NCBI GenBank assembly: GCA_031459875.1
Contig: JAVKHQ010000004.1
Location: 66,609 to 130,608, forward strand
Direction: 5' to 3'
Origin: Candidatus Fervidifonticultor sextus
Lineage (GTDB): Bacteria > Sysuimicrobiota > Sysuimicrobiia > Sysuimicrobiales > Humicultoraceae
DNA length: 64,000 nt
Each line of letters opens with the position of its first letter. Positions within the stretch are counted from its first letter, which is position 1. Shown here one piece after another: positions 35,722-54,068 of the stretch. Position numbers and translations under genes: made by a program. The notes beneath the pieces are model-generated. The model was not told where the DNA came from. It saw nothing but the letters and a program-made list of their open reading frames with translations, and did no database searches.

Positions 35722-37296
35722 CTAGCTCGCCGGCTGCGGCGCCGCCACCAGCGACGCGTACTCCAGGCTGTCGGCCAGTGCCCGCGCGCTGGCCAGCACC
35801 ACGTTTTCCGAGACGCCCACCGTGCCCCAGTGCCGCTGGCCGTCGGTCGAGGTGATCAGCACGCGCACCCGTGCCGCCGTCGCGGCCTCGGCGTTCAACA
35901 CCCGCACCTTGTAGTCCACCAACCGCACCCGGGCCAACTCGGGGTGGAAGCGCTCCAGCGCCGCCCGCAGCGCCCTGTCCAGGGCGTGGACCGGGCCGTT
36001 GCCCTCGGCGGACGCGCCGGCCTCCTGGCCCCGGACCGACACGCGGACGATGGCCCGCGCGGTGCACTGCCCGTCGTGCTGGTCGACGGCGACGTGGAAG
36101 GCCTTGATCTCGAACCCGGGCACGTAGCCCAGGGCCGCCCGCCGGAGCAGCAGTTCGAAGGAGGCCTCGGCGCCCTCGAACTGGTACCCCTCAAACTCCA
36201 GGCGCTTCAGGTCGTCGAGCACCGCCTGGACCTCGGGCCGCGAGCGGTCGAGGTGCAGGCCCATCTCTGTAGCCTTGTAGAGCACGGTGGCCCGCCCCGA
36301 GAGGTCGCTGACCACCACGCGCCGGGCGTTGCCGATCACCTCCGGCGGGACGTGCTCGTACATGACCGGATCGGCCATCACCGCACTGACGTGCACGCCG
36401 CCCTTGTGGGCGAAGGCGTTGGCCCCGACGTAGGGCTGATAGTCATCGGGGGCCATGTTGGCCAGCTCGGCGACCAGCCGGCTCAACCCGGTCAGGTGCA
36501 CCAGGGCGTCGGGGTGGAGGGCGTCCAGGCCCAACTTGAGCCGGAGCCCCGGGACGACCGAGCACAGGTTGGCATTGCCGCACCGCTCGCCGTAGCCGTT
36601 GATGGTGCCCTGGACGTGGACGCACCCGGCCTCCACGGCGGCGAGGGTGTTGGCGACGGCCAGCTCCGCATCGTTGTGCGTGTGGATGCCGATGGGTCCA
36701 CCCACTTCGCGGGCGACCACCGCCACCCCGTCGCGGACCTGTGCGGGGAGGCTGCCGCCATTGGTGTCGCAGAGGACCAGGCAGTCCGCCCCGGCCTCCC
36801 GGGCCGCCCGCAGGGTCGCCAGCGCGTAGTCGCGGTTCGCCCGCAGGCCGTCGAAGAAGTGCTCGGCGTCGTAGATGACCTCGCGGCCGGCCGCGCGCAA
36901 GAACGCCACCGACTCCCGGATCATCGCCAGGTTCTCCTCCAGCGTCGTGCGCAGGGCCTGCCGGACGTGCAGGTCCCAGGACTTGCCGAAGATGGTCACG
37001 GTGGGTGTGTTGGCGTCGACCAGCAGCCGGAGGTTCGCATCCTCCTCCGCGCGCACGCCAGCCCGCCGGGTGCTGCCGAAGGCGGCGATCCGCGCGTGGC
37101 GCCACGGGACATCCCGCGCCTGCTCGAAGAAGGCCAGGTCCTTGGGGTTGCTGCCCGGCCAGCCTCCCTCGATGTAGTCGAAGCCCAACTCGTCCAGCCG
37201 ACGGGCGATCCGCACCTTGTCCTCGGCGGAGAAGGCCACGCCCGCGGCCTGCGTGCCGTCGCGCAACGTCGTGTCGTAAACGGCGATGCGTCTCAT
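35722..37296 (-). CDS. cimA: Citramalate synthase
   Basis: YDTTLRDGTQ, EGGWPGSNPKD, FGKSWDLHV, YDAEHFFDG, HKGGVHVSAV, EGAEASFELL. Confidence 0.94.
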   Translation of the reverse strand: MRRIAVYDTTLRDGTQAAGVAFSAEDKVRIARRLDELGFDYIEGGWPGSNPKDLAFFEQARDVPWRHARIAAFGSTRRAGVRAEEDANLRLLVDANTPTVTIFGKSWDLHVRQALRTTLEENLAMIRESVAFLRAAGREVIYDAEHFFDGLRANRDYALATLRAAREAGADCLVLCDTNGGSLPAQVRDGVAVVAREVGGPIGIHTHNDAELAVANTLAAVEAGCVHVQGTINGYGERCGNANLCSVVPGLRLKLGLDALHPDALVHLTGLSRLVAELANMAPDDYQPYVGANAFAHKGGVHVSAVMADPVMYEHVPPEVIGNARRVVVSDLSGRATVLYKATEMGLHLDRSRPEVQAVLDDLKRLEFEGYQFEGAEASFELLLRRAALGYVPGFEIKAFHVAVDQHDGQCTARAIVRVSVRGQEAGASAEGNGPVHALDRALRAALERFHPELARVRLVDYKVRVLNAEAATAARVRVLITSTDGQRHWGTVGVSENVVLASARALADSLEYASLVAAPQPAS

Positions 37297-37802
37297 CGCC
37301 GGGCCGTCCCGCCGGCCACCTTCTGGCGCGTGTAGGCGATGATGCCGCCGGCGGCGACCAGCCGGCGCATGAAGTCCGGCAGGGGCGCCGCGGCATGCAC
37401 GGTCCCCCGGGTCTCGTTGATGATGCGGCCGGCCTCCTGGTCCACGGCGATCTGATCGCCGCTCTCGGTGACGGCGTGGAGGTCTGCGCACTCAAAGAGG
37501 GGCAGCCCGATGTTGAAGGCGTTGCGGTAGAAGATGCGGGCGTAGGACTTCGCGACGATGCAGGCAACCCCCAGGCCCTTGATGGCGATCGGCGCGTGCT
37601 CGCGTGAGGAGCCCTGGCCGAAGTTCTCGCCGGCCACCAGGATGTCGCCGGGCCGGATCCTGGCGGCCAGGGAGGGGTCCAGGTCCTCGAAGCAGTGCGG
37701 CGCCAGGGCCGCGGCATCGGCGGTGACGAGATAGCGCGCCGGGATGATGACATCCGTGTCCACGTGATCGCCCAGCTTCCAGGCGGTCCCCCGGAAGATC
37801 AT
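37293..37802 (-). CDS. leuD: Isopropylmalate isomerase small subunit (type 2)
   Basis: [35 protein letters not shown]. Confidence 0.96.
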
Positions 37803-39078
37803 GCCCCCACCTCCAGCGCCGTCTTCCCCAGGACCTCGTCGGGGTGCGCGAGCCGGCCGAGCACCGCGCTGGCGGCGGCCACAGCCGGACCGGCCAGGTA
37901 GACCTGGCTCTCCCGGTGCCCCATCCGGCCCACGAAGTTGCGCGACGACGTGCTGACGCAGACCTCTCCCGCTGCCAGGACGCCCATGTGTCCGCCGATG
38001 CAGGGTCCGCAGGTGGAGGTGCTGACCGCGGCGCCGGCGTCGATGAAGATCTCGATCAATCCCTCGGCCAGGGCCTGGCGGTAGATCGCCGGGGTCGCCG
38101 GGATCACCAGCAGCCGCGTGCGGGGGTGGACCCTGCGGCCGGCCAGCAGCCGCGCCGCCACCCGCAGGTCCTCCAGCCGGCCGTTGGTGCACGTACCGAT
38201 AAAGCACTGGTCCACCAAGACGCCGGCCGCTTCGCGCACCGGCACCACGTTGCCGGGCGACGACGGCGCCGACACCACCGGCTCCAGCCGGCTCGTGTCG
38301 TACTCAAAGACCTTCGTGTACTCGGCGTCGCGGTCGGCATAGACCGGGACGAAGGGCCGCTTCGCGCGGGGCGCCACCCACTCCAGGACCACCTCGTCGG
38401 GCTCCATGATGCCGTTCTTGCCGCCGGCCTCCACCGCCATGTTGGTGATGCTGAAGCGTTCGTCCATCGTCAGGTGCCGCAGGGCCTCGCCGGCGAACTC
38501 CATGGCGCAGTAGCGGGCGCCGTCCACGCCGATGTCGCCGATGACCCGCAGGACCAAGTCCTTGCCGGTGACCCAGGGCGCCGGGCGTCCGTGGAAAACA
38601 AAGCGCAGCGTCTCCGGCACCCGGAACCACAGTTCGCCGGTCGCCATGACCGCCGCCAGGTCCGAGGAGCCGACCCCGGTGGCAAAGGCGCCGAGCGCGC
38701 CGTGGTTGCACGTGTGGGAGTCGGCCCCCACAAAGACCTCGCCGGGCAGGACCAGCCCCTCCTCGGCCAGCAGGACGTGGGCGATCCCCGCGCGGCCGAT
38801 CTCGTAGTAGTGGGGGATCTCGTGGCGGCGGGCGAACTCCCGCATGACCTTGCACTGCTCGGCCGAGGCGATGTCCTTGTTGGGCGCGTAGTGGTCGGGC
38901 ACCAGGGCCACGCGGTCGCGGTCGAAGACGGTCGGCACCCCGATCTTCTCGAACTCGCGGAAGGCCAGCGGCGCAGTGATGTCGTTGGCGAAGCAGAAGT
39001 CCACGCGGGCCTCGATGAGATCGCCCGGCCGCACGCGGGGTGCGCCCGCGTGCGCGGCCAGGATCTTCTCGGTCAGCG

Positions 39079-39082
<4 letters not shown>
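37799..39082 (-). CDS. leuC: Isopropylmalate isomerase large subunit (type 2)
   Basis: [39 protein letters not shown]. Confidence 0.96.
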
Positions 39083-40620
<1,538 letters not shown>

Positions 40621-40635
40621 CGGGTGCCTCCGACC

Positions 40636-41133
40636 TCAGGTGTTCTGGGCTCCGCGCACCAGCGTCACCTGCCCGGTGCGGGCCATCTCGCGGATCCCGT
40701 GCTTGGCGAGCAGGGAGACGATCGCGTCGATCTTGTCGGTGCGGCCGGTGACCTCCAGGGTGATGGTACGGTCGGTGAGGTCCACAACGCTGGCGCGGAA
40801 GACGCTGGCGATTTCCATGATCTCCATGCGCGTCCCGGGATTCACGTTGACCTTGATGAGGGCCAGCTCGCGGTCCACGGTGGGCGTGCCGTCCACGGCG
40901 GTGGCCCGCAGCACCTCCACCAGCTTGCGCAGTTGCTTGGCGAAGGACTCCGTCCGGTCCGGCGGCGTGTCCACCACGATGGTCATGCGCGAGATGCTGG
41001 GATCCTCGGTGGGCCCCACCGACAGGCTGTGGATGTTCACCCCGCGGCGCCGGATGAGCCCGGCCACCCGGACCAGGACCCCCGGCTGGTTGCGGACCAG
41101 GACCGAAATGGTCGCGGTGTGCGGCTCGCTCAT
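40636..41133 (-). CDS. ilvN: Acetolactate synthase small subunit
   Basis: ACT domain NQPGVLVRVAGLIRRRGVNIHSL, SRMTIVV, RELALIKV, EMARTG. Confidence 0.95.
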   Translation of the reverse strand: MSEPHTATISVLVRNQPGVLVRVAGLIRRRGVNIHSLSVGPTEDPSISRMTIVVDTPPDRTESFAKQLRKLVEVLRATAVDGTPTVDRELALIKVNVNPGTRMEIMEIASVFRASVVDLTDRTITLEVTGRTDKIDAIVSLLAKHGIREMARTGQVTLVRGAQNT

Positions 41134-41165
41134 CTCGTCGACTCCCTCCGCCTGGGCCACCGGCC

Positions 41166-42680
41166 TCACCGGACGGCGATGTCCACGGGCGGCCGCATGG
41201 CGGCCAGCGTGGCCAGCACCTCGTGGATCGGGTGGGCGCGGAAGGCCTCGAGGAGCGCCCCGCCGGCGCGCGGCTGCTCGTCGGCCGCAGGGTAGGCGAT
41301 CTGGGACAGCAGGGCCTCGAACCGCGGCCCCCACTTGCGCGTGCCCAGGCGCGCCGTCGTGGAGCAGTTGTCCACCATGTAGGCGACGCCGCGGGCGTGC
41401 ATGTAGGGGAGCAGGGAGTCCACGGCCTCGATGACGGACTCGTTGGCGATCTCGGAATAGGGGTGCCCCCGCTCCACGAGCACGTCCACCTGGGCCATCA
41501 TCGTCCCCAGGAAGGTCCCGGCGGTGAAGGCGTGGACCTCGGCCCTCAGCCGCCCGCGCTGCCGGCGGACGTCGGCCCCCACCTTCCACATCCGGCTCCC
41601 CTCGATGGGCGGGATCGGGTACTCGGCCAGGCGCTTGCCGGCCAGGATCACGCTGCGCAGTTCGTTGCCCGAGGCGACCTCGTCGTAGATCTCGACCATC
41701 AGCGGCTTCGTCGTGGTGTAGGCGGCCGCATAGGCCCGCTCGAAGTCCGCCCGCTCCGGCCCCGACAGCCCGTCGTAGACGGCGCGCAGTCCCTCCCGGG
41801 AAATCCGCTGTGCGATCGGACCGGTGATGCTCTCGCAGGCGTGGACGAAGGCCTCCTGCTCCGAGTAGCCCTGGGCGAGGTAGCGGCGGTAGAGGCTCTC
41901 GACGATCCCCCAGACCGCGCCCAACAGGATCGCCCGCTCGCCGAAGATGTCGGAGAGGTACTCGGAGGTCAGCGTCGTCTTGAACGTATACGGCGCCCCC
42001 AGCGCCACCGACCAGGCCAGGGCGACCTCGGTGGCGCGGCCGTCGATGTCCTGCTCGACTGCGAAACTGGTGTTGATCCCGGCGCCGTTGGTCTCGCGGC
42101 CCTGTTCGTAGAGGCGGCGGACCGAGGGGCCCATGCCCTTGGGGCACACGCCGATGACGTTCACCGTCGGCGGGAACCGGTCGCCCGTGTTGCGCAGGTG
42201 GCCCACCAGGAAGCCGTGGGACAGCCCCAGCGTGGCGCCCGGCCGCAGCGCCTGGAAAATGCGCGGGTACAGCTCGGCCTGCGCGGCGTCGGCGATCAAC
42301 AGCAGGACCAGGTCGGACCGCTCGATGACCTCGAACATTTCGCCCAGTGTGCCGCCGGCCTCGGTGAACCCCGCCTGGCGGGCCGCCTCGAATGAACCCG
42401 ACCCTTCCCGCAGCCCGACGACCACCGTGATCGGGGTGCCCTCCAGCGACTCGCGCAGGTTCATGGCCTGGGCCGGGGCCTGCGAGCCCCAGCCGATCAC
42501 GCCGATGGTGCGGATGCCCGCCAGCGCCTTGGGCAGCAGGGGGAACAGGTGCCGCCCGCCACGCACGAAGGACTCGCGCCGGCCCGCCAGGTCCAGCGTC
42601 TCCACCGGGAAGATCGCCGAGGTGAAGGTGTTCTCGCCGGCGGCGGCCGCGGACTTTGGAGCGTGGGACGCCATGGTCAT
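41166..42680 (-). CDS. ilvC: Ketol-acid reductoisomerase, long class II (plant-like) form
   Basis: VIGWGSQAPAQA, LSHGF, CPKGMGPSVRRLY, SDIFGER, NCSTTARLG; about 500 aa. Start may be 42674, 42680 or 42692. Confidence 0.94.
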   Translation of the reverse strand: MTMASHAPKSAAAAGENTFTSAIFPVETLDLAGRRESFVRGGRHLFPLLPKALAGIRTIGVIGWGSQAPAQAMNLRESLEGTPITVVVGLREGSGSFEAARQAGFTEAGGTLGEMFEVIERSDLVLLLIADAAQAELYPRIFQALRPGATLGLSHGFLVGHLRNTGDRFPPTVNVIGVCPKGMGPSVRRLYEQGRETNGAGINTSFAVEQDIDGRATEVALAWSVALGAPYTFKTTLTSEYLSDIFGERAILLGAVWGIVESLYRRYLAQGYSEQEAFVHACESITGPIAQRISREGLRAVYDGLSGPERADFERAYAAAYTTTKPLMVEIYDEVASGNELRSVILAGKRLAEYPIPPIEGSRMWKVGADVRRQRGRLRAEVHAFTAGTFLGTMMAQVDVLVERGHPYSEIANESVIEAVDSLLPYMHARGVAYMVDNCSTTARLGTRKWGPRFEALLSQIAYPAADEQPRAGGALLEAFRAHPIHEVLATLAAMRPPVDIAVR

Positions 42681-42684
42681 GCCG

Positions 42685-44448
42685 TCACGCATCGAGGATC
42701 ATTTCCTTGACCGACTGCCCCGAGGGGATCATCGGGAGGCAGTTCTCCTCGGGGTCGCAGAGCACGTCCACCACGCAGGGGACGCCCTCGGTGGCCAGGG
42801 CCTCGCGCAGCGCGCCCTCGACCTGCTCCGGCCGCTCCACCCGGATCCCCCGCGCCCCGTACACCTCGGCCAGCCGGGCGAAGTCGGGGTTGCGCAGCAG
42901 TGACGCCGACAGCCGGCCCCGGTAGAAGAAGCTCTGCCACTGGCGGACCATCCCCAGGGCGCCGTTGTTGAGGATGATGATCGGCAGGCTCAGCCGGTGT
43001 TCCACCGCCGTGATCAGGTCCTGCAGGGTCATCTGGAACCCCCCGTCGCCGACCACGGCGAAGACCTGCCGGTCCGGACAGGCGAATTTGGCGCCCATCG
43101 CCGCCGGGAAGCCGAACCCCATGGCCCCCAGCCCCCCGGAGGTGATGAACGACCGCGGCGCCCGCGGCCGGTACCACTGCGCCAGCCACATTTGATGCTG
43201 CCCCACGTCGGTCACCGCGATGGCCCGCCCCTCGGTGAGCCGGTTGAGCAGGTCGCAGACGTACTGGTGGCTGATGCGGTCTGCGCCCTGGCGGTACCGG
43301 AAGGGGTACCGCGTGCGCCACTCGTCGATCTGCTGCCACCAGGCGTCGATCTGCGGGGGGCGCACCTGCGGCAGCAGCGCCGCCAGCACCCGCCGGGCGT
43401 CGCCGACGATCGGCACGTGCGCCGGCTTGTTCTTCCCGATCTCCGCCGGGTCGATGTCGATGTGGATGAACCGCGCCCCCGGCGCGAAATCCTTCAGCCG
43501 CCCGGTCACCCGGTCGTCGAACCGCACCCCCACGGCCAGGATAACATCCGCCCCGTTGATGGCCCAGTTGGCATAGGCGCTGCCGTGCATGCCCACCATT
43601 CCCAAGCACAGCGGGTTCGTCTCGTCCATCGCCCCCTTGCCCATCAGCGTCAGCACCGTCGGGATCCGCGTTCGCTCCACCAGCGCTGTCAGTTCCCGGC
43701 TGGCCTCCGAGGTGATGATCCCCCCGCCGGCGTAGATGACCGGCCGCTGTGCCGCCGAGAGCAACTCGGCCGCCGCCGCGATCTGGCCGGGACTGCCCTC
43801 GGTGATCACCCGGTAGCCGGGGATCTCGACGGCGTCGGGGAACTCCGGCTCGACCAGTTCCTGCGAGACGTCCCGCGGGATGTCCACCAGCACCGGTCCC
43901 GGCCGGCCGGTGCGGGCCAGGTAGAACGCCTCGTGAATCGCCCGCGGGATGTCGGCCGCCCGCATCACCAGCGTGTTCCACTTCGTGATGGGCATCGTGA
44001 TGCCGGTGACGTCTGCCTCCTGGAAGGCGTCGTTGCCGATCACCGGCCGGGCCACCTGCCCCGTGATGGCCACGATCGGAATGGAGTCCATCATGGCGTC
44101 GGTGATCCCCGTCACCAGGTTCGTCGCCCCCGGCCCCGAGGTCGCCGTGCACACCCCCACCCGGCCCGAGGCCCGCGCGTAGCCCACCGCCGCGTGCGCG
44201 GCCACCTGCTCATGGCGGCAGAGGATGTGCCGGATCCCGTCGGCGTCGTAGATGGCATCGTAGATCGGCAGCGACGCCCCACCGGGATGGCCGAACATGA
44301 GCTCGACCCCTTCCCTGCGCAGCGCCTCCATCAGCACCTGGGCGCCGTTCATCCTGGGCGCGGGGGCGGGGCCGCCCGCCTCGCTGGCAGCCGGCCGCGC
44401 CGGCCGACGCGCCGTTCGGGTCCGTGGTGCCGTCATCTGCCGGGCCAT
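42685..44448 (-). CDS. ilvB: Acetolactate synthase large subunit
   Basis: FGHPGGA, RHEQ, TSGPGATN, FQEAD, GMHG, DVGQHQM, GDGGF...NN, GMVRQWQ. Confidence 0.97.
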   Translation of the reverse strand: MARQMTAPRTRTARRPARPAASEAGGPAPAPRMNGAQVLMEALRREGVELMFGHPGGASLPIYDAIYDADGIRHILCRHEQVAAHAAVGYARASGRVGVCTATSGPGATNLVTGITDAMMDSIPIVAITGQVARPVIGNDAFQEADVTGITMPITKWNTLVMRAADIPRAIHEAFYLARTGRPGPVLVDIPRDVSQELVEPEFPDAVEIPGYRVITEGSPGQIAAAAELLSAAQRPVIYAGGGIITSEASRELTALVERTRIPTVLTLMGKGAMDETNPLCLGMVGMHGSAYANWAINGADVILAVGVRFDDRVTGRLKDFAPGARFIHIDIDPAEIGKNKPAHVPIVGDARRVLAALLPQVRPPQIDAWWQQIDEWRTRYPFRYRQGADRISHQYVCDLLNRLTEGRAIAVTDVGQHQMWLAQWYRPRAPRSFITSGGLGAMGFGFPAAMGAKFACPDRQVFAVVGDGGFQMTLQDLITAVEHRLSLPIIILNNGALGMVRQWQSFFYRGRLSASLLRNPDFARLAEVYGARGIRVERPEQVEGALREALATEGVPCVVDVLCDPEENCLPMIPSGQSVKEMILDA

Positions 44449-44514
44449 CTCAATCCCTCCGTCCCACTCTCATGGCGTCCCTCCATGCCTCCTCGCCGAA
44501 GCGACAAGCCCCTG

Positions 44515-44748
44515 CGCAAACACAAACGGGACCATCCCAAGGACGGGATGCTCCCGCGGTACCACCTTAGTTCCCTCCCGGCGTCGCGGCCGGGTGGGCC
44601 CTCTCACCCGTCTCGGGGGCGACCGGCGGGTCCTACTCGCGGTTCAGACCCGCAGCTCGGGGACGAGGTTCGGCGGTCTTGGAGACCGGCTCACACCACA
44701 CCCGGTTCGCTTCCTCCGCGAGCCCGCCTACTGCTTCCCGTCGTCGCT
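44515..44748 (-). promoter_or_regulatory. T-box riboswitch, Leu (CUC) specifier, with terminator
   Basis: Stem I with GA motif, AGUAG, AGCGA and GGUGUGA loop; specifier GAAC-CUC-G (44667-44665); Stem II with GAA/AGUA; T-box AAGGUGGUACCGCG (44568-44555); terminator GGGAGCAUCCC/GGGAUGGUCCC followed by GUUUGUGUUU. Confidence 0.93.
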
Positions 44749-44757
44749 CATCTGCTG

Positions 44758-44810
44758 GATGAAGAAGCCTGAGCGATAGGCACCGGTGAGGAACCTATCC
44801 CTCAGGCTTC
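44758..44810 (-). terminator. Expression-platform terminator of the ykkC-type riboswitch
   Basis: GAAGCCUGAG-G-GAUAGG ... CCUAUC-G-CUCAGGCUUC hairpin overlapping the aptamer 3' end; weak U-tract. Confidence 0.75.
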
Positions 44811-44902
44811 TATCCTGAAGGTGTAACGGCGCGATCCGCCGCCTGCGCCGCTTGGACCAGCCCGGCCCGGGTTGGACCGCGGAACCCTAGGCGCACTCCC
44901 TC
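44788..44902 (-). promoter_or_regulatory. ykkC-family riboswitch aptamer, probably subtype 2a (ppGpp)
   Basis: P0 GAGGGA/UUCCUC; P1 UGCGCC/GGCGCA; CUAGGGUUCCG; CUGGUCCAAGCGG; ACACC; P3 loop AUAGAAG; 3' GGAUAGG. Confidence 0.88.
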
Positions 44903-44929
44903 GAAATCAGGCCCTTTGAAATTGCCTCT

Positions 44930-44959
44930 AATCTACCGAGGCGGCAGCCGCCTTGTCAA
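44930..44959 (-). promoter_or_regulatory. Sigma-70/SigA-type promoter of the ilv-leu leader
   Basis: TTGACA-N18-TAGATT on the minus strand, about 27 nt upstream of the aptamer. Confidence 0.8.
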
Positions 44960-45021
44960 GCCCCGAACCCTCCGGGTCGCGTCGGCGGTGACGCGGATCC
45001 GACGCCGCCGCGCCTGCCTGG

Positions 45022-45786
45022 CTACTGTCGCCAGATCAGATGCAGGAAGGGCCCCTCCAGCGTGTGCTCCAGGATGTCAGTCGGGCGACGGAAATCGATA
45101 CGCTGGAACCGCCAGCCGGCCTCGCCCGCCAACCGCGCGCTCCGTTCGTAGCGGATCGCGAACTGGGCATCGGTGAGCGTCCCGCCGTAGGTGGTGGTCG
45201 TCGTCGTGCCGCCGCTGACGAAGTTCTCGGTCACGTTCATGGCGAACGCGTGGGCCAAAAACAGGCGCGCCGACCACGGCCCGCGCAGCGGGATGTGCGC
45301 CTCGGCGCCCAGGCGCGGCCCGCCGGCCCGCGCCTCGTCGCTGGTCGCCAGAGCCGAATCTTCGGTGCGGGCGCGGTAGTACTGCCAGCCGGCCAGCAGA
45401 TCGACGGCCAGCGGCCCCGGTCCCACCCGGTAGCGCACGTCCACGCTGGAAATCGTCACGTTGCCGCTCACCGACGCCGGGGCGGGCACGTCGCTGAAGG
45501 TGATGTTGCGCCACGAACCGCCGGCGTAGTCGAAGGCCAGCCACCATCGGTCGCGGAGTCTGAGCCGCGCGTCGAGCACCAGCAGGGTGTTGTCGGCCTT
45601 GACGTCCACCGGCCCCACGAACCGCCACTTCCCGCGGCCGAACCACGCGCCGACGCTGAGGGCGAAGCGCTGGTCGGGGGCCTGGTAGGCGAGAAGCGAG
45701 TGGTCCGGCCAACTCTGCCCGCGCGCCGACGCCGGCAGGACCAGCACGAAGGTCAGGACGAGTGTTACGGCCAGAATGCGTGTCAT
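45022..45786 (-). CDS. Putative outer-membrane beta-barrel protein
   Basis: Signal peptide; repeated alternating hydrophobic strands with aromatic ends; last strand GPFLHLIWRQ. Confidence 0.75.
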   Translation of the reverse strand: MTRILAVTLVLTFVLVLPASARGQSWPDHSLLAYQAPDQRFALSVGAWFGRGKWRFVGPVDVKADNTLLVLDARLRLRDRWWLAFDYAGGSWRNITFSDVPAPASVSGNVTISSVDVRYRVGPGPLAVDLLAGWQYYRARTEDSALATSDEARAGGPRLGAEAHIPLRGPWSARLFLAHAFAMNVTENFVSGGTTTTTTYGGTLTDAQFAIRYERSARLAGEAGWRFQRIDFRRPTDILEHTLEGPFLHLIWRQ

Positions 45787-49194: not shown

Positions 49195-51282
49195 CTATGG
49201 CCGCGGAGACAGCCACGGCTGCTCGAACAAGATGTTCCCCTGCGATCCCACGCCCACCCGGCCGCGGGCCCAGGGGAGCGCGGTCAGCCAGGTCTCCAGC
49301 CAGATCTCCCGTGTCCGACCCCGATACGTCACCGCCGTCGCCAGGCAGTCCTCCCAGAACCTGGTGATCGTCAGGCGATCGTGGAACACCTCGCGGCTGA
49401 ACCCATCATAGAACCCGTAGTAGGAGGCGTGCCAGTCCGGACTGAGTCTGACGTCAAACGAGAGTTCGGCGCGGGCCAGTTGACCCAGAACCGGCTCGTA
49501 CGACAGCGCCGACGCCACCACCCAGTCGGGACGTGGCGCGTACTGGGCCCGCACGACCACCGGGGCCAGGCGGCCGGCCATCGCGTCGAAGGAGGTGTTC
49601 CCGGCCACGGTCAGGTTGAGTCGCCGATAGGTCAGGGTCGCTTCCGCCTGCGCCACGCGGGTGAAGAGCCGGTCGAACGTGAACGGGGTGCGCCCGGCCT
49701 CGTCCTGATACGTCAACCCGACCTGCAGCGTCCACACGTCCCCGAGGTATCGCGTGAACTCCGCACGGCCTGCCGCAAACCCCCGCACATCGCCGGTCGT
49801 GTAGCCCGAGAGGCGCGCCTCGGCGTATAGGGTCAAGACCTCCCGGTCGGACTCGATGAGCGGGCCGCTCAGGTTGAGCCCCAGATCGGTCCGCACGGCC
49901 TCTATGGTGGACGCGAACTGGACCTGGCGGAAGCGACCGACCCCTCCGAGGAGGCGATAGCCCAGTTGTGTCCCGCCCAGCGGCCGGAGTTCCGTCGCGA
50001 ACGTCAGTTCAGGCAGCCGCTCGGTCACCGCACGGAAATCGCCCGGGAACCGATCAGCGTCGAGGTCAATGCGACCCTCGGCGATCAGCGAGGCGGTGTA
50101 GCCCGGCCCCTGGTACTGGAGGGTCAGCCGCGGGAAGAGTTCATCGTCCGCCCCCAACATCGAGGTGCTGCGGGAGAAATCCGCCAGGATCTCGGCCCGG
50201 AGCGCGGGCGCCAGCTGATGGGTGTGGAGCACCCGTGCCGCGTACGTCCAGAATCCGAACCCTCCGAAATCACGATCGGTGAAGCTCTGGTAGAGGGTCG
50301 TCGAGAACCTGGGCCCCGCATAGTAGGAATCCAGGGAGAGGAAGGTGTCGGTGGTCCTGAAGAACGGCCCCGACCGGGTCAGGTAGTCGGTGTACAGCCG
50401 CGCGTTGACCTCGCCCAGGCGCTGCTGGTGGTTGAGGACCAGGCGGAAGTCGTTCCCTGAAGTCCGCCGGTTGTCCAGCCGGTAGAGAAAGGCCGACCCC
50501 GTCGCCGAGGTGGAGCGGTAGGTGTGCTCGAGCCCGTAGCCCGTGCCGAGCCGCTCCATCAGGTCCAGACGCAGGTAGCCGAACTGGTCCGGGTTGAGGG
50601 CGTACGTGTAGAACGTCTTGAGGTAGTAGCCCTCCACCTCGGAATAGCCCGCGACGGGCAGCAGCTGGCTGGCCCGTGGCTCGCGCAGGAACACGATGAA
50701 GTACGGCCAGGTCAGGAGGCGGCGGCCCCCGATCCAGACGCTCACCTGACGGCCGATGATCTTGTCGTTGGGGAACACCTGGAACTCGCGCGCGGTCAGG
50801 TAGACGAGCGGGGCAAGGCCGTCGCACGTGGTGCAGAATCCTTCCCGGGCGGTCGTGACGCCGCCGAGGAGGCCCTCGACGACCGCCGCCCGCAGGTGCA
50901 CCGTGCCCAGCACCGGCGGTCCGCGGTAGTCGGCTTCAGCCTGCTGGATGCGGCCCCTGCGGGTTGTCAGGTTGTACTCCAGTACAGTCCCCCGCACCTG
51001 TGAACGGCCCACCTCGATGGCCACGTGGCCTTCGGCCAGCACGTCGTTGGTGGCCAGATTGGCCTGGAGCCGGTCGGCGGAGATGGTCACATCCTGATAC
51101 ACGACGACCACGTCTCCGGTCGCGACGAGGGTGCGCGTCGCGCGGTCGTACTGGAACCTGCGGGCCCGCAGGGTGACCGGGATGTCCTCTTGGGCACCGG
51201 CCTCGGGCGAACCCACCAGCAGGACTGCCAGGAGGATGGCCGGCACCACCTGGGCACGCCGGCCGGCGGCCCGTGAATTCAC
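49195..51282 (-). CDS. LptD/OstA-like outer-membrane assembly protein
   Basis: N-terminal beta-jellyroll (ATGDVVV, AEGHVAI, YNLTTRRG), TTCD motif, then a large beta-barrel. GTG start overlaps the upstream stop. Confidence 0.82.
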   Translation of the reverse strand: MNSRAAGRRAQVVPAILLAVLLVGSPEAGAQEDIPVTLRARRFQYDRATRTLVATGDVVVVYQDVTISADRLQANLATNDVLAEGHVAIEVGRSQVRGTVLEYNLTTRRGRIQQAEADYRGPPVLGTVHLRAAVVEGLLGGVTTAREGFCTTCDGLAPLVYLTAREFQVFPNDKIIGRQVSVWIGGRRLLTWPYFIVFLREPRASQLLPVAGYSEVEGYYLKTFYTYALNPDQFGYLRLDLMERLGTGYGLEHTYRSTSATGSAFLYRLDNRRTSGNDFRLVLNHQQRLGEVNARLYTDYLTRSGPFFRTTDTFLSLDSYYAGPRFSTTLYQSFTDRDFGGFGFWTYAARVLHTHQLAPALRAEILADFSRSTSMLGADDELFPRLTLQYQGPGYTASLIAEGRIDLDADRFPGDFRAVTERLPELTFATELRPLGGTQLGYRLLGGVGRFRQVQFASTIEAVRTDLGLNLSGPLIESDREVLTLYAEARLSGYTTGDVRGFAAGRAEFTRYLGDVWTLQVGLTYQDEAGRTPFTFDRLFTRVAQAEATLTYRRLNLTVAGNTSFDAMAGRLAPVVVRAQYAPRPDWVVASALSYEPVLGQLARAELSFDVRLSPDWHASYYGFYDGFSREVFHDRLTITRFWEDCLATAVTYRGRTREIWLETWLTALPWARGRVGVGSQGNILFEQPWLSPRP

Positions 51283-52910
51283 CGGGGCGTCGGCGTGGGA
51301 CGGGCCGTCGGGTTGGGGCTCGGGGCGAGAGGTCGGACGACGAACTCTGTTTGGACATCCCCCTCGGCCTCGAAGGTCTCGTGGTCGAGGGAGATCACGA
51401 CGCGGTCGGCCCGCAGGCGTTGTCCATCGGCATCCTGCATCCGGACGTTGCCGGTCACCACGAGGACCCGGGTCGCCTCGGTGTAGGTCGCGCGGTCCCC
51501 CGAGACTGATCGCTCCTTTTGCGTCACGGTCAGCGGCCCGTCGGCCGTGATGTCGCGCTCCCGCAGGGTCATGGTCAGCCGGGTGCAGGTCAGGCGCGTG
51601 ACCGAGGCCAGCGCCTGCTGGTCCCGCGGATCGCGGGGCGGAGCCACCAGGCCCTCGCGGACCAGCCACTCGCCGCTCGTCTGCTCCAGGACCACCCGGC
51701 CGGTCAGGACGAGCCGGTTGGCCGGCTCCGAGTACGTCATGCGGTCGGCCCACGCGGTCTTGTCGCGCTGTCTGACCTCGACGCGGTCCTCGGCCTCGGC
51801 CTCGTTCGCCGCCCAGAGGAAGACGATCCGGCCGGCCGTGACGGTGGTCTCCTCCTTGGCCAGGGCACCCAGGACGCGGTCGGACGGACTCGGCGGCGGC
51901 CCCGGCGACCGGACCAGCACCACCTCGCCGCGCACGTCGGCCCGCCGGGCCTGCAGGTTGGCCAGCAGCCGACGGCCGGTCAACTTCACGCCGGGCCGCG
52001 TGAGGGAAACCCCGCCTTCGGCGACCACATCGCCGGAGGGGGCCTCGTAGCGGAGCCACGATGCGGTCAGCAGGCCGTCGGCCTGTTCGACCGCGACGCC
52101 GCCCGACGCCGTCGTGACCTCGTGGCGCAGGTCGAAATGCATCTCTGGCGACCGCACCGTGGCGTCCGGTCGCCTGAACACCGCGCCGCCCGTGGCCGTG
52201 GCCTGGTCCGTGCGGAACTCGTACCTGACGACAGGCGCCACCAGCGTGGCCTCACGGCGGCGGACGCTCACGGCGCCCTCCGCCGTGGCGACCTGGGCTC
52301 TCGTGTCCACCCGCAGAACGTCGGCGCTCATCGTGACCTCGCCAGCCTCCAGCTGGACATGGCCCGACGCGACGATGAGGTGCGCTCGGGTGTCGTAACG
52401 GATGCGGTCCGCCCGAAGGCGTCCAAAGCCGACCGGGATCTCCTGGGAGCCCCCGGTCGGTGACGGGCGCGTCGTGGTGCCGGTGACCTGACCGACCAAC
52501 TCGATGAGGTGGGAATCTTGATCCCAGGTGGCCGCCTGGGCGGTGAGCCGATCCCCTCGGGCCGTGACCAGCGTCAGACCGCCGTCGACGCGCACGGTCC
52601 GGCGGGCGCGATCGAGCACGATGTGGGCGCCCCTCGCTTCTGCGGCCTGCCTGTCGCCATCGAAGAACATGGCTCGGGTGCGGCCGGTAAAGACCGTAAA
52701 CCGCCGGTCCGCGCTGACCTCCACGCGGTCGGCAGTGATCTCGGCCCGCCGGACGCCCCGGTGTCGAAGGACGATGGACGTCCCCGTGGCCCGAACGGCT
52801 GTGCGTTCCACCGGCTGCTCGGGTGCTGCCTGCTCGGTCCGCACCAGCCAGAGGAACCCACCGCCGGCGACCGCCACGGCCACCGTCACGACGGCCAGCC
52901 GCCGCCTCAC
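51279..52910 (-). CDS. Membrane-anchored multi-jellyroll LptC/LptA-like protein
   Basis: N-terminal TM followed by about 10 'ADRxxY..A.G.V' OstA-type repeats. GTG overlaps the upstream permease stop. Confidence 0.8.
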   Translation of the reverse strand: MRRRLAVVTVAVAVAGGGFLWLVRTEQAAPEQPVERTAVRATGTSIVLRHRGVRRAEITADRVEVSADRRFTVFTGRTRAMFFDGDRQAAEARGAHIVLDRARRTVRVDGGLTLVTARGDRLTAQAATWDQDSHLIELVGQVTGTTTRPSPTGGSQEIPVGFGRLRADRIRYDTRAHLIVASGHVQLEAGEVTMSADVLRVDTRAQVATAEGAVSVRRREATLVAPVVRYEFRTDQATATGGAVFRRPDATVRSPEMHFDLRHEVTTASGGVAVEQADGLLTASWLRYEAPSGDVVAEGGVSLTRPGVKLTGRRLLANLQARRADVRGEVVLVRSPGPPPSPSDRVLGALAKEETTVTAGRIVFLWAANEAEAEDRVEVRQRDKTAWADRMTYSEPANRLVLTGRVVLEQTSGEWLVREGLVAPPRDPRDQQALASVTRLTCTRLTMTLRERDITADGPLTVTQKERSVSGDRATYTEATRVLVVTGNVRMQDADGQRLRADRVVISLDHETFEAEGDVQTEFVVRPLAPSPNPTARPTPTPR

Positions 52911-54028
52911 GGGCGCGCCCCCTGGGGCCGCGCGGTGGCGACCATCGGTGCCGAAAGACGGATCCACCCTTCGGCCCAGGCCACCAGGACGACCCCTGCG
53001 GCGAGGAACAGCAAGTTGGGTGCCCAGGCGGCCAGCAGGGGCGAGAGCACCCCCGTCGACCCCAGGGCCCTGCCCACAGACATCACGGCGTAGTACAGGA
53101 ACAGCAGCACCACGCTGGCGGCCACCCCGGCGAAGCGGCCGCCGCGCATCGCCAACAGGCTCAATGGCGCGGCCACGAACGCGAAGACGAGGCTCGCGGC
53201 TGGAATGGCGAACTTGCGGTGGTACTCCATCACCGCCCGGGGCGGCAGGCCGGCGCGGAACAGATCCACCTGGGACCGCAGTTCCCTGATCGTCATCTCC
53301 TCGGGGGTGCGTTGCGCCTCGAAGAAGCCCGACGCATCGAGGCCGACGTTGATCTGGAGGGTGGCAAACGCCGCCTCGTGGGTGGTGAATCCTTCGGCAT
53401 CCAGCTCGCGCAGCACCCCATGGTGCAGCACCCACGTCCGGGTGGACCACCGGGCCCGCTTGGCCGTGATGAGCCGCGGGAGCGGTCCTGCCGATTCAAA
53501 GATCATCACATCGCGCAGTACGCGCGCCTCCCGGTCAATCTGGTTCACGTACAGGACGCGGTTGCCGGGGGCGCGCAGGAAGACCTGTTCGCGCACCTCG
53601 GGAAAGGCCTCCCCCAGCAATGCCCGACGGATCAGCGCATTGGCTCGCTGGTTGGCCCACGGGGAGATGACCTCATTGGTCGCCAGGGTGAGGCCGGTGA
53701 CGCCCAGTCCGAAGGCGATGACCGGCGCGAAGAGCCTCGGCAGGCTCATGCCCATCAGGCGCATGGCCTGCAACTCGCAGTCGCGTGCCAAGCGGCCCAG
53801 GCCCAGCAGCGTCCCGAACAGCGTCGAGACGGGGAAGGTGATGACCATGATGGCCGGCATCTTGTAGGCGAGCAGCCGCATCACGACGGCCAGGGAGACC
53901 CGCCCGCTGGCGATATACTCCGCCAGAGTATAGAAGACGTCCCCGACGAGAATGACGAGGAATCCCCCGAGCCCGAGGACGAAGGGGGGCAGGAGCTCTC
54001 GGACGACGTACCGGTCGATGATGCGCAT
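52907..54028 (-). CDS. LptF/LptG family permease
   Basis: MRIIDRYVVREL, RLARDCELQAMRLMG, PEEMT, YHRKFAIP, AAWAPN. Alternative start at 54055. Confidence 0.93.
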   Translation of the reverse strand: MRIIDRYVVRELLPPFVLGLGGFLVILVGDVFYTLAEYIASGRVSLAVVMRLLAYKMPAIMVITFPVSTLFGTLLGLGRLARDCELQAMRLMGMSLPRLFAPVIAFGLGVTGLTLATNEVISPWANQRANALIRRALLGEAFPEVREQVFLRAPGNRVLYVNQIDREARVLRDVMIFESAGPLPRLITAKRARWSTRTWVLHHGVLRELDAEGFTTHEAAFATLQINVGLDASGFFEAQRTPEEMTIRELRSQVDLFRAGLPPRAVMEYHRKFAIPAASLVFAFVAAPLSLLAMRGGRFAGVAASVVLLFLYYAVMSVGRALGSTGVLSPLLAAWAPNLLFLAAGVVLVAWAEGWIRLSAPMVATARPQGARP

Positions 54029-54068
54029 GGGCCGGTCTGGCGAGACCGCGGACATGAGTCTTCAGCCC

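Follow-up and report, generated by a model that had tools for sequence, protein, structure and literature searches.

The leader of the ilvB-leu-cimA operon, on the minus strand of the window (the whole stretch of 64,000 nucleotides analysed here), is probably a two-input transcriptional AND gate, at which (p)ppGpp and uncharged tRNA-Leu(GAG) would both be needed; we put the probability of this reading at about 85%. The order on the minus strand is a sigma-70-type promoter, a ykkC-family aptamer, a terminator hairpin, a Leu(CUC) T-box, a second terminator and ilvB-ilvC-ilvN-leuACD-cimA (Table 1), so that the two elements share a leader and have separate expression platforms. The initial annotation had proposed this order as far as ilvB, and every part is found where it was placed. 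Its AND-type layout, with both switches and their separate terminators in one leader, likewise agrees with the sequence features and the gene context, which suggest such a gate. Sequence and comparison reveal the order of the parts, the pocket residues, mutually exclusive folds for each switch, the CUC specifier with a matching tRNA, and a RelA/SpoT gene. A gate in which a ppGpp switch precedes a T-box is already published; the addition made here is its wide presence in the uncultured phylum Sysuimicrobiota.

Table 1. Features of the ilvB-leu-cimA leader and operon (positions are those of the window; homologs are the 69 aptamers of related genomes).
Feature	Position	Strand	Basis
Sigma-70/SigA-type promoter, TTGACA-18 nt-TAGATT	44930..44959	-	promoter scan
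ykkC-family aptamer, predicted subtype 2a ((p)ppGpp type), P0+P1+P2+P3	44788..44902	-	RF00442, fold, covariation
A5/G6 equivalents	44896..44897	-	sequence; kept in 67/69 homologs
G48/C49 equivalents	44850..44851 (44851/44850)	-	kept in 69/69 homologs
ACAC motif	44821..44824	-	kept in 67/69 homologs
P3, continuous 8-bp hairpin, no G96 bulge	44799..44821	-	folding, homolog comparison, covariation
P3-P0 linker AUAGG, 5 nt	44794..44798	-	matches (A)NARG consensus of binding aptamers
Terminator 1, absorbs the 3' strands of P3 and P0, ~-35 kcal/mol	44759..44810	-	folding; hairpin 44810-44764
Transcriptional T-box, Leu class: Stem I, II, IIA/B, III, antiterminator	44536..44753	-	RF00230
Specifier codon CUC (Leu)	44665..44667	-	sequence, RF00230 alignment
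T-box bulge UGGUACC	44558..44564	-	complementary to A-CCA end of tRNA-Leu(GAG)
Terminator 2, interrupted U tail	44517..44557	-	-24.4 kcal/mol vs -9.7 for the antiterminator
ilvB, acetolactate synthase large subunit, first regulated gene	42685..44448	-	TIGR00118, 786 bits, above cut-off
ilvC, ilvN, leuA, leuC, leuD, cimA (remainder of operon)	35722..42692	-	starts/stops abut or overlap

A promoter scan of positions 44200-45300 returned a single site, compared to 0.1 expected in shuffled sequences, and thus the SigA promoter proposed earlier is confirmed; a similar promoter lies upstream of 27 of the 29 ilvB-linked aptamers. From its position we infer that transcription would start near A44923, and an A at this start could allow control by the GTP level, as in B. 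subtilis. At the other end of the leader, a frame of seven codons (44473-44450, minus strand) with its own Shine-Dalgarno-like motif stops just upstream of the ilvB start, and a similar frame is present in the closest relative (L007). Moreover, an extra gene is found between the tandem leader and ilvB in L089 (G010; thiamine-enzyme-like) and in L008.

The ykkC and T-box models of Rfam, the use of which had been suggested for this locus, both match by E-value, slightly below their gathering cut-offs. RF00442 matches 44901-44797 over its full length (61.1 bits, E 2.6e-10; 2 bits below the gathering value of 63), and RF00230 matches 44753-44536, also over its full length (model positions 1-219; 83.8 bits, E 1.4e-18; 9 bits below the gathering value of 93). 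At the gathering threshold both elements are missed, and two tRNAs are the sole Rfam matches in the window. Thus, standard annotation misses or misnames the two elements, since they fall below the Rfam cut-offs or are labelled 'Guanidine-I'.

In agreement with the RF00442 match, the isolated aptamer folds into P0-P1-P2-P3 (-53.6 kcal/mol), which bears out the earlier identification of a ykkC-family aptamer with a P0 helix and a terminator of its own. The P0 helix is present with A5 and an unpaired G6, the residues which in published structures contact the 5'-phosphate and stack on the guanine of the ligand (PMC6031431, PMC9881157). C75 of the ACAC motif is free, its G96 partner being missing (13-nt tail without a bulge), and its equivalent, C44823, is the predicted pairing partner of the guanine of ppGpp. 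The AUAGG linker also occurs in the binders C17, C57 and C65, and all the residues listed for the (p)ppGpp pocket in PMC6031431 and PMC9881157 are present. The fold is further supported by covariation: 18 of 35 pairs show two-sided change, as do four of the six pairs of P0, and none of 500 shuffles scored as high, although this count is not a probability, because the aligned kin are not independent. The underlying alignment comprised 66 of the 69 aptamers (64 distinct), excluding two long copies and one at a contig end. Together with the gene context in 61 genomes, these features back the assignment to subtype 2a made in the initial annotation, which we consider probable.

That annotation had moreover noted an A at 44802, in the position of G96 of PRPP aptamers, and had read it as a G96A change. 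The letter is there, and the Rfam alignment does put the G96 slot at A44802; the reading as G96A, however, is less apt than that of a missing bulge. In the fold, 44821-44814 are fully paired with 44799-44806, and A44802 pairs with U44818 inside a continuous 8-bp P3, which argues that the G96 slot is absent rather than occupied by A. We therefore dropped 'A at G96' as a determinant of the ligand on the basis of fold and homolog comparison; the sequence is better read as a deletion of the bulged nucleotide, in line with the statement that the G96 position is sometimes missing from ppGpp aptamers (PMC6031431). As had been suspected, the 3' strand of P3 indeed lacks 1 nt relative to the T. mathranii aptamer. 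The further suggestion that the short P3 marks a new variant was ruled out: the same form is known from C94 and C101, two published natA aptamers, and from the environmental candidate C89. Among the 69 aptamers the tail from P3 to P0 measures 13 nt in 62, 12 nt in six and 14 nt in one. The last is the gltB aptamer of G004 (G004:C34:6101-6205), which besides its atypical tail has no good terminator tail and is possibly decaying.

For the second element, the earlier description of a complete Leu T-box with a CUC specifier and a bulge matching discriminator A stands, and the same genome encodes a tRNA-Leu(GAG) ending in A-CCA. The CUC specifier is found in all 29 ilvB tandems, and the UGGU bulge in 28 of 30 T-boxes. 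Elsewhere in the genome, another Leu(CUC) T-box lies upstream of an ilvE-like gene (L114; G000:C8:18263-18570, minus strand) and carries a complete tRNA-Ala(GGC) gene in the slot of Stem III. By a strict motif test, such nesting occurs at 21 of 30 fetched homolog loci.

Aptamers of this type are widespread in the relatives. RF00442 matches were found in 46 of 61 related genomes (69 matches) and in 70 of 94 genomes of the phylum; named IlvB loci from the database come from a similar collection and were not added to the counts. The gene downstream of the 69 aptamers is gltB in 35 cases, ilvB in 29 and cimA in three, the remaining two lying at a contig end, so that the context fits subtype 2a for 67 of 69. 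The ilvB aptamers alone are paired with a T-box: it is present downstream of each of the 29 and absent after the 38 that lie upstream of gltB or cimA. In family f2 (G034:C13, G040:C7, G058:C1), single 2a-type aptamers stand immediately upstream of a separate cimA gene. A model built from 66 aptamers of the phylum finds only two copies in the genome under study (150 of 7399 candidates scored). The second 2a-type aptamer there (G000:C65:26114-26230, plus strand; L160/L216) has its own hairpin and no T-box and precedes a GltB-like gene of 1521 aa, and it is likely that the same type of aptamer controls gltB alone in this genome. One related RNA run yielded only contigs of less than 99% identity.

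Not all ilvB operons have both elements. In the 54 genomes with IlvB, the tandem is present in 29 (f1 20, f2 8, f7 1), a promoter and T-box without an aptamer in 22 (f1 6, f4 7, f5 8, f6 1), and three loci are cut by contig ends. Since the T-box is kept without the aptamer, the ppGpp input is dispensable in the lineages of these 22 relatives. At the 31 aptamer-less ilvB loci the aptamer model gave no significant match, and an Rfam search of the upstream slot in 17 of them returned nothing named. In family f5 (L199, L201, L202, L203, L207, L211) a GC-rich stretch of ~150 nt, conserved and closed by an invariant helix, lies between promoter and T-box, in the place of the aptamer. It matches neither Rfam nor the phylum aptamer model; position and branching would fit an eroded aptamer, which the model search does not confirm. 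Other hairpin-like stretches are found between promoter and T-box in L191-L193 (f1, genus g8) and in L198 and L208 (f4), where the aptamer is missing.

How would such a gate work? (p)ppGpp is predicted to pair with C44823, in the place that G96 occupies in PRPP aptamers, and to stabilise P0 and P3, so that terminator 1 would not form in time. RNA polymerase would then pass terminator 1 and transcribe the T-box, whose antiterminator would be held by uncharged tRNA-Leu. With a single input, one terminator would still be active. The AND logic itself is a prediction in the source papers (PMC6003355, PMC9481103), and in a published screen weak or no binding was seen for five of the 30 aptamers predicted as 2a (PMC9881157).

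The alternative that survives best is a sub-case of the AND gate, in which the same aptamer would favour pppGpp over ppGpp. C94 and C101, which were tested and have a continuous P3 and a 5-nt linker as here, prefer pppGpp (PMC9881157), and in C94, as in our aptamer, the P1-ACA motif is replaced by GCA. However, the linker of C94 and C101 is ACGAG, whereas the AUAGG found here is that of C17, C57 and C65, which bind both ligands, and with 52 nt P1 belongs to the long group, which bound ppGpp and pppGpp alike (PMC9881157). A preference for pppGpp is a minority possibility.

A further alternative concerns terminator 1. The aptamer with its 3' flank folds at -81.4 kcal/mol with the terminator, compared to -65.8 kcal/mol when P0 and P3 are forced, which makes terminator 1 ~15 kcal/mol more stable than the fold that contains the aptamer. 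The poor U-tract that the initial annotation had pointed out is real and typical of the phylum: the tail has five U of eight, and the U count averages 5.3 in ilvB and 4.6 in gltB aptamers. Given this energy advantage and the five U of eight, the switch must operate under kinetic control, possibly with some leakage. (p)ppGpp could thus be bound without effective gating, terminator 1 either leaking too much or dominating too strongly; the T-box would then control the operon and ppGpp would only tune it. Apart from tail and energy gap, the lack of an aptamer upstream of ilvB in the 22 relatives and the modest published in vitro range (PMC6003355) speak for this possibility. Against it, a strand complementary to the 3' side of P3 is kept 28-102 nt downstream, at variable distance, in all 68 non-truncated homologs (a raw count with no chance control), and its sequence tracks the change in P3 between ilvB and gltB aptamers. 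Moreover, the T-box terminators of the same ilvB leaders have U tails as interrupted as those of terminator 1, so that interrupted tails look like the norm of the lineage, and the U run is interrupted in the validated switch of D. hafniense as well (PMC6003355). A terminator that takes up strands of P3 and P0 is the design of validated switches (PMC6003355, PMC10687018). The terminator pairs are 98% kept in the 28 aligned ilvB leaders (28/29), yet we rejected covariation as evidence for them, since within these leaders 43-213 of 500 shuffles were as high. Overall, control by the T-box with mere tuning by ppGpp seems improbable, and less probable than the pppGpp sub-case.

Few substitutions suffice to change the ligand of the ykkC scaffold (PMC6031431), and an aptamer with a compact P3 might therefore sense ADP/CDP (subtype 2c), guanidine or an unknown ligand. 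Guanidine-I is excluded by the C at position 49, where that class has A (PMC6031431): C44850 gives a C-A mismatch in the Rfam alignment, and P0 is present, whereas subtype 1 has A49, an equivalent of G96 and no P0. The 2c and 2d switches precede NUDIX/HAD hydrolases and EamA/TauE transporters (PMC5912903, PMC7266159, PMC7583486); neither gene context is seen downstream of the 69 aptamers, and this speaks against both subtypes. The environmental aptamer C89, by eye near-identical, was grouped with 2a by its authors (PMC9881157). We thus regard a different nucleotide ligand as very unlikely. For the PRPP riboswitches of subtype 2b, a comparison class was available in the class of G064, whose 95 genomes contain 36 RF00442 matches in 33 genomes, of which 30 loci were fetched and 27 parsed; in all 27 the tail measures 14 nt and the G96 position is a G, and they lie mostly upstream of purine genes (by eye). 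That the aptamer studied here is such a riboswitch is hardly credible, even though it shares P0, the AUAGG linker and most of its sequence with PRPP aptamers and three ilvB relatives have a G, without a bulge, in the column of 44802, since PRPP preference requires G96 (PMC6031431), the 14-nt tail with a bulged G96 that would pair with C75 is missing in 68 of 69 aptamers and a purine gene is downstream of none of the 67 classifiable ones.

An AND gate responding to (p)ppGpp and tRNA-Leu is thus the reading we prefer, and its host, by marker-gene identity, falls in Sysuimicrobiota (CSP1-3), outside the Firmicutes. The best IlvB matches (75-98%) come from Ca. Fervidifonticultor, Ca. Calidihabitans, ANGP1, an 'Armatimonadota bacterium' and unclassified MAGs, followed by Limnochordales at 58%; the genera Ca. 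Fervidifonticultor, Ca. Calidihabitans and ANGP1 belong to Sysuimicrobiota, the phylum CSP1-3 (PMC11604079). A comparison of RpoB with five genomes, one of which gave no match, shows 95% identity to Fervidifonticultor (residues 1-137 only), 87-89% to two other members of the phylum and 76-81% to a Limnochordales genome. The IlvB and RpoB matches rule out a diderm Firmicute, and the non-Firmicute host presumed in the initial annotation is upheld by this check of the taxonomy. So is its Lpt-bearing diderm: the window contains LptF/G-like, LptC/A-like and weakly LptD-like genes (49195-54055, minus strand), consistent with a diderm envelope, and an Omp85 gene lies elsewhere on the same contig. The genome (96% complete) encodes RelA/SpoT and Rho and has no CodY-domain match. 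Of the 94 genomes of the phylum, 91 encode RelA/SpoT and three have a CodY domain above the Pfam cut-off (G006:C29, G039:C1, G035:C112; candidate CodY).

With slightly better than even odds, these diderm, mostly CodY-less Sysuimicrobiota would exert stringent control of amino-acid genes through a phylum-wide ppGpp-riboswitch regulon (ilvB-leu, gltB, cimA) with a compact, bulge-less aptamer. If true, it would be the first regulon of its sort described outside the Firmicutes, and the families, which carry a two-input gate, only a T-box, or another element in the upstream slot, would form a natural series for the gain and loss of RNA gates. It would also fit the idea that ppGpp riboswitches are older than CodY, and the finding that CodY is mostly not found in Sysuimicrobiota would be relevant to the proposed replacement of ppGpp switches by CodY. 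Moreover, the phylum offers ~30 natural leaders with two inputs, and a variant of P3 without the bulge, for studying AND logic and the preference between ppGpp and pppGpp. The species named in Table S1 of PMC9881157 are, we presume, all Firmicutes in the broad sense. If binding is confirmed, the range would grow from ~50 firmicute species (PMC9881157) to 70 of 94 genomes of another phylum. Six other lineages, searched by term in the supplement of PMC9881157 (for Table S2, 13 rows were covered), were not found, and searches of literature listings returned no report of a ppGpp riboswitch in Sysuimicrobiota. The range and the regulon in this phylum are thus apparently previously unreported; of the range extension claimed in the initial annotation, the non-Firmicute phylum stands, whereas the gate itself was in print.

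Among known systems, the PRPP riboswitch of T. mathranii (2b, PDB 6CK5; G96A mutant 6CK4) has the scaffold, P0 and the AUAGG linker in common with our aptamer. It keeps the bulged G96 and regulates purine genes, whereas here the nucleotide is missing, not changed as in G96A. The validated 2a switches T. oceani ilvE, D. hafniense ilvE and P. fermentans glxB share P0, A5/G6, G48/C49 and ACAC with it, as well as a terminator competing with P3/P0 and BCAA or glutamate-synthase contexts; genes of both kinds in the same organisms are the signature of 2a (PMC6003355). By eye, they differ in a P3 3' strand of 9-10 nt and a linker of 4 nt, compared to 8 and 5 here. These dimensions, and a fully paired P3, recur in the natA aptamers C94 (Clostridium sp. 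BL8) and C101 (by eye; PMC9881157 Table S1), both of which bind (p)ppGpp (PMC9881157), but unlike our aptamer these two have the ACGAG linker, a short P1, the natA context and the preference for pppGpp. The environmental 2a candidates C86, C88 and C89 are by eye near-identical to the gltB aptamers of family f4 (G041, G053, G056), including the short P3, and in Table S1 of PMC9881157 they carry no taxon or gene, no test mark and no mention of a T-box. The compact variant of the phylum was therefore probably contained in the original alignment without a taxon.

Finally, tandems of a ppGpp switch and a Leu T-box are on record 15 times in the present order and 16 times in the reverse (PMC9481103 Table 2). 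A Leu T-box adjoins ~40% of the BCAA-linked ppGpp switches, with Firmicutes as the predominant hosts (PMC6003355), as the initial annotation had it, and such pairs in Bacillota are listed elsewhere under the label guanidine (PMC12452182). The hosts of the published gate typically have codY, whereas ours belongs to Sysuimicrobiota, with no CodY domain found and a bulge-less P3. Element order, separate terminators, Leu specifier and BCAA operon, in contrast, are the same here as in the published gate (PMC6003355, PMC9481103).
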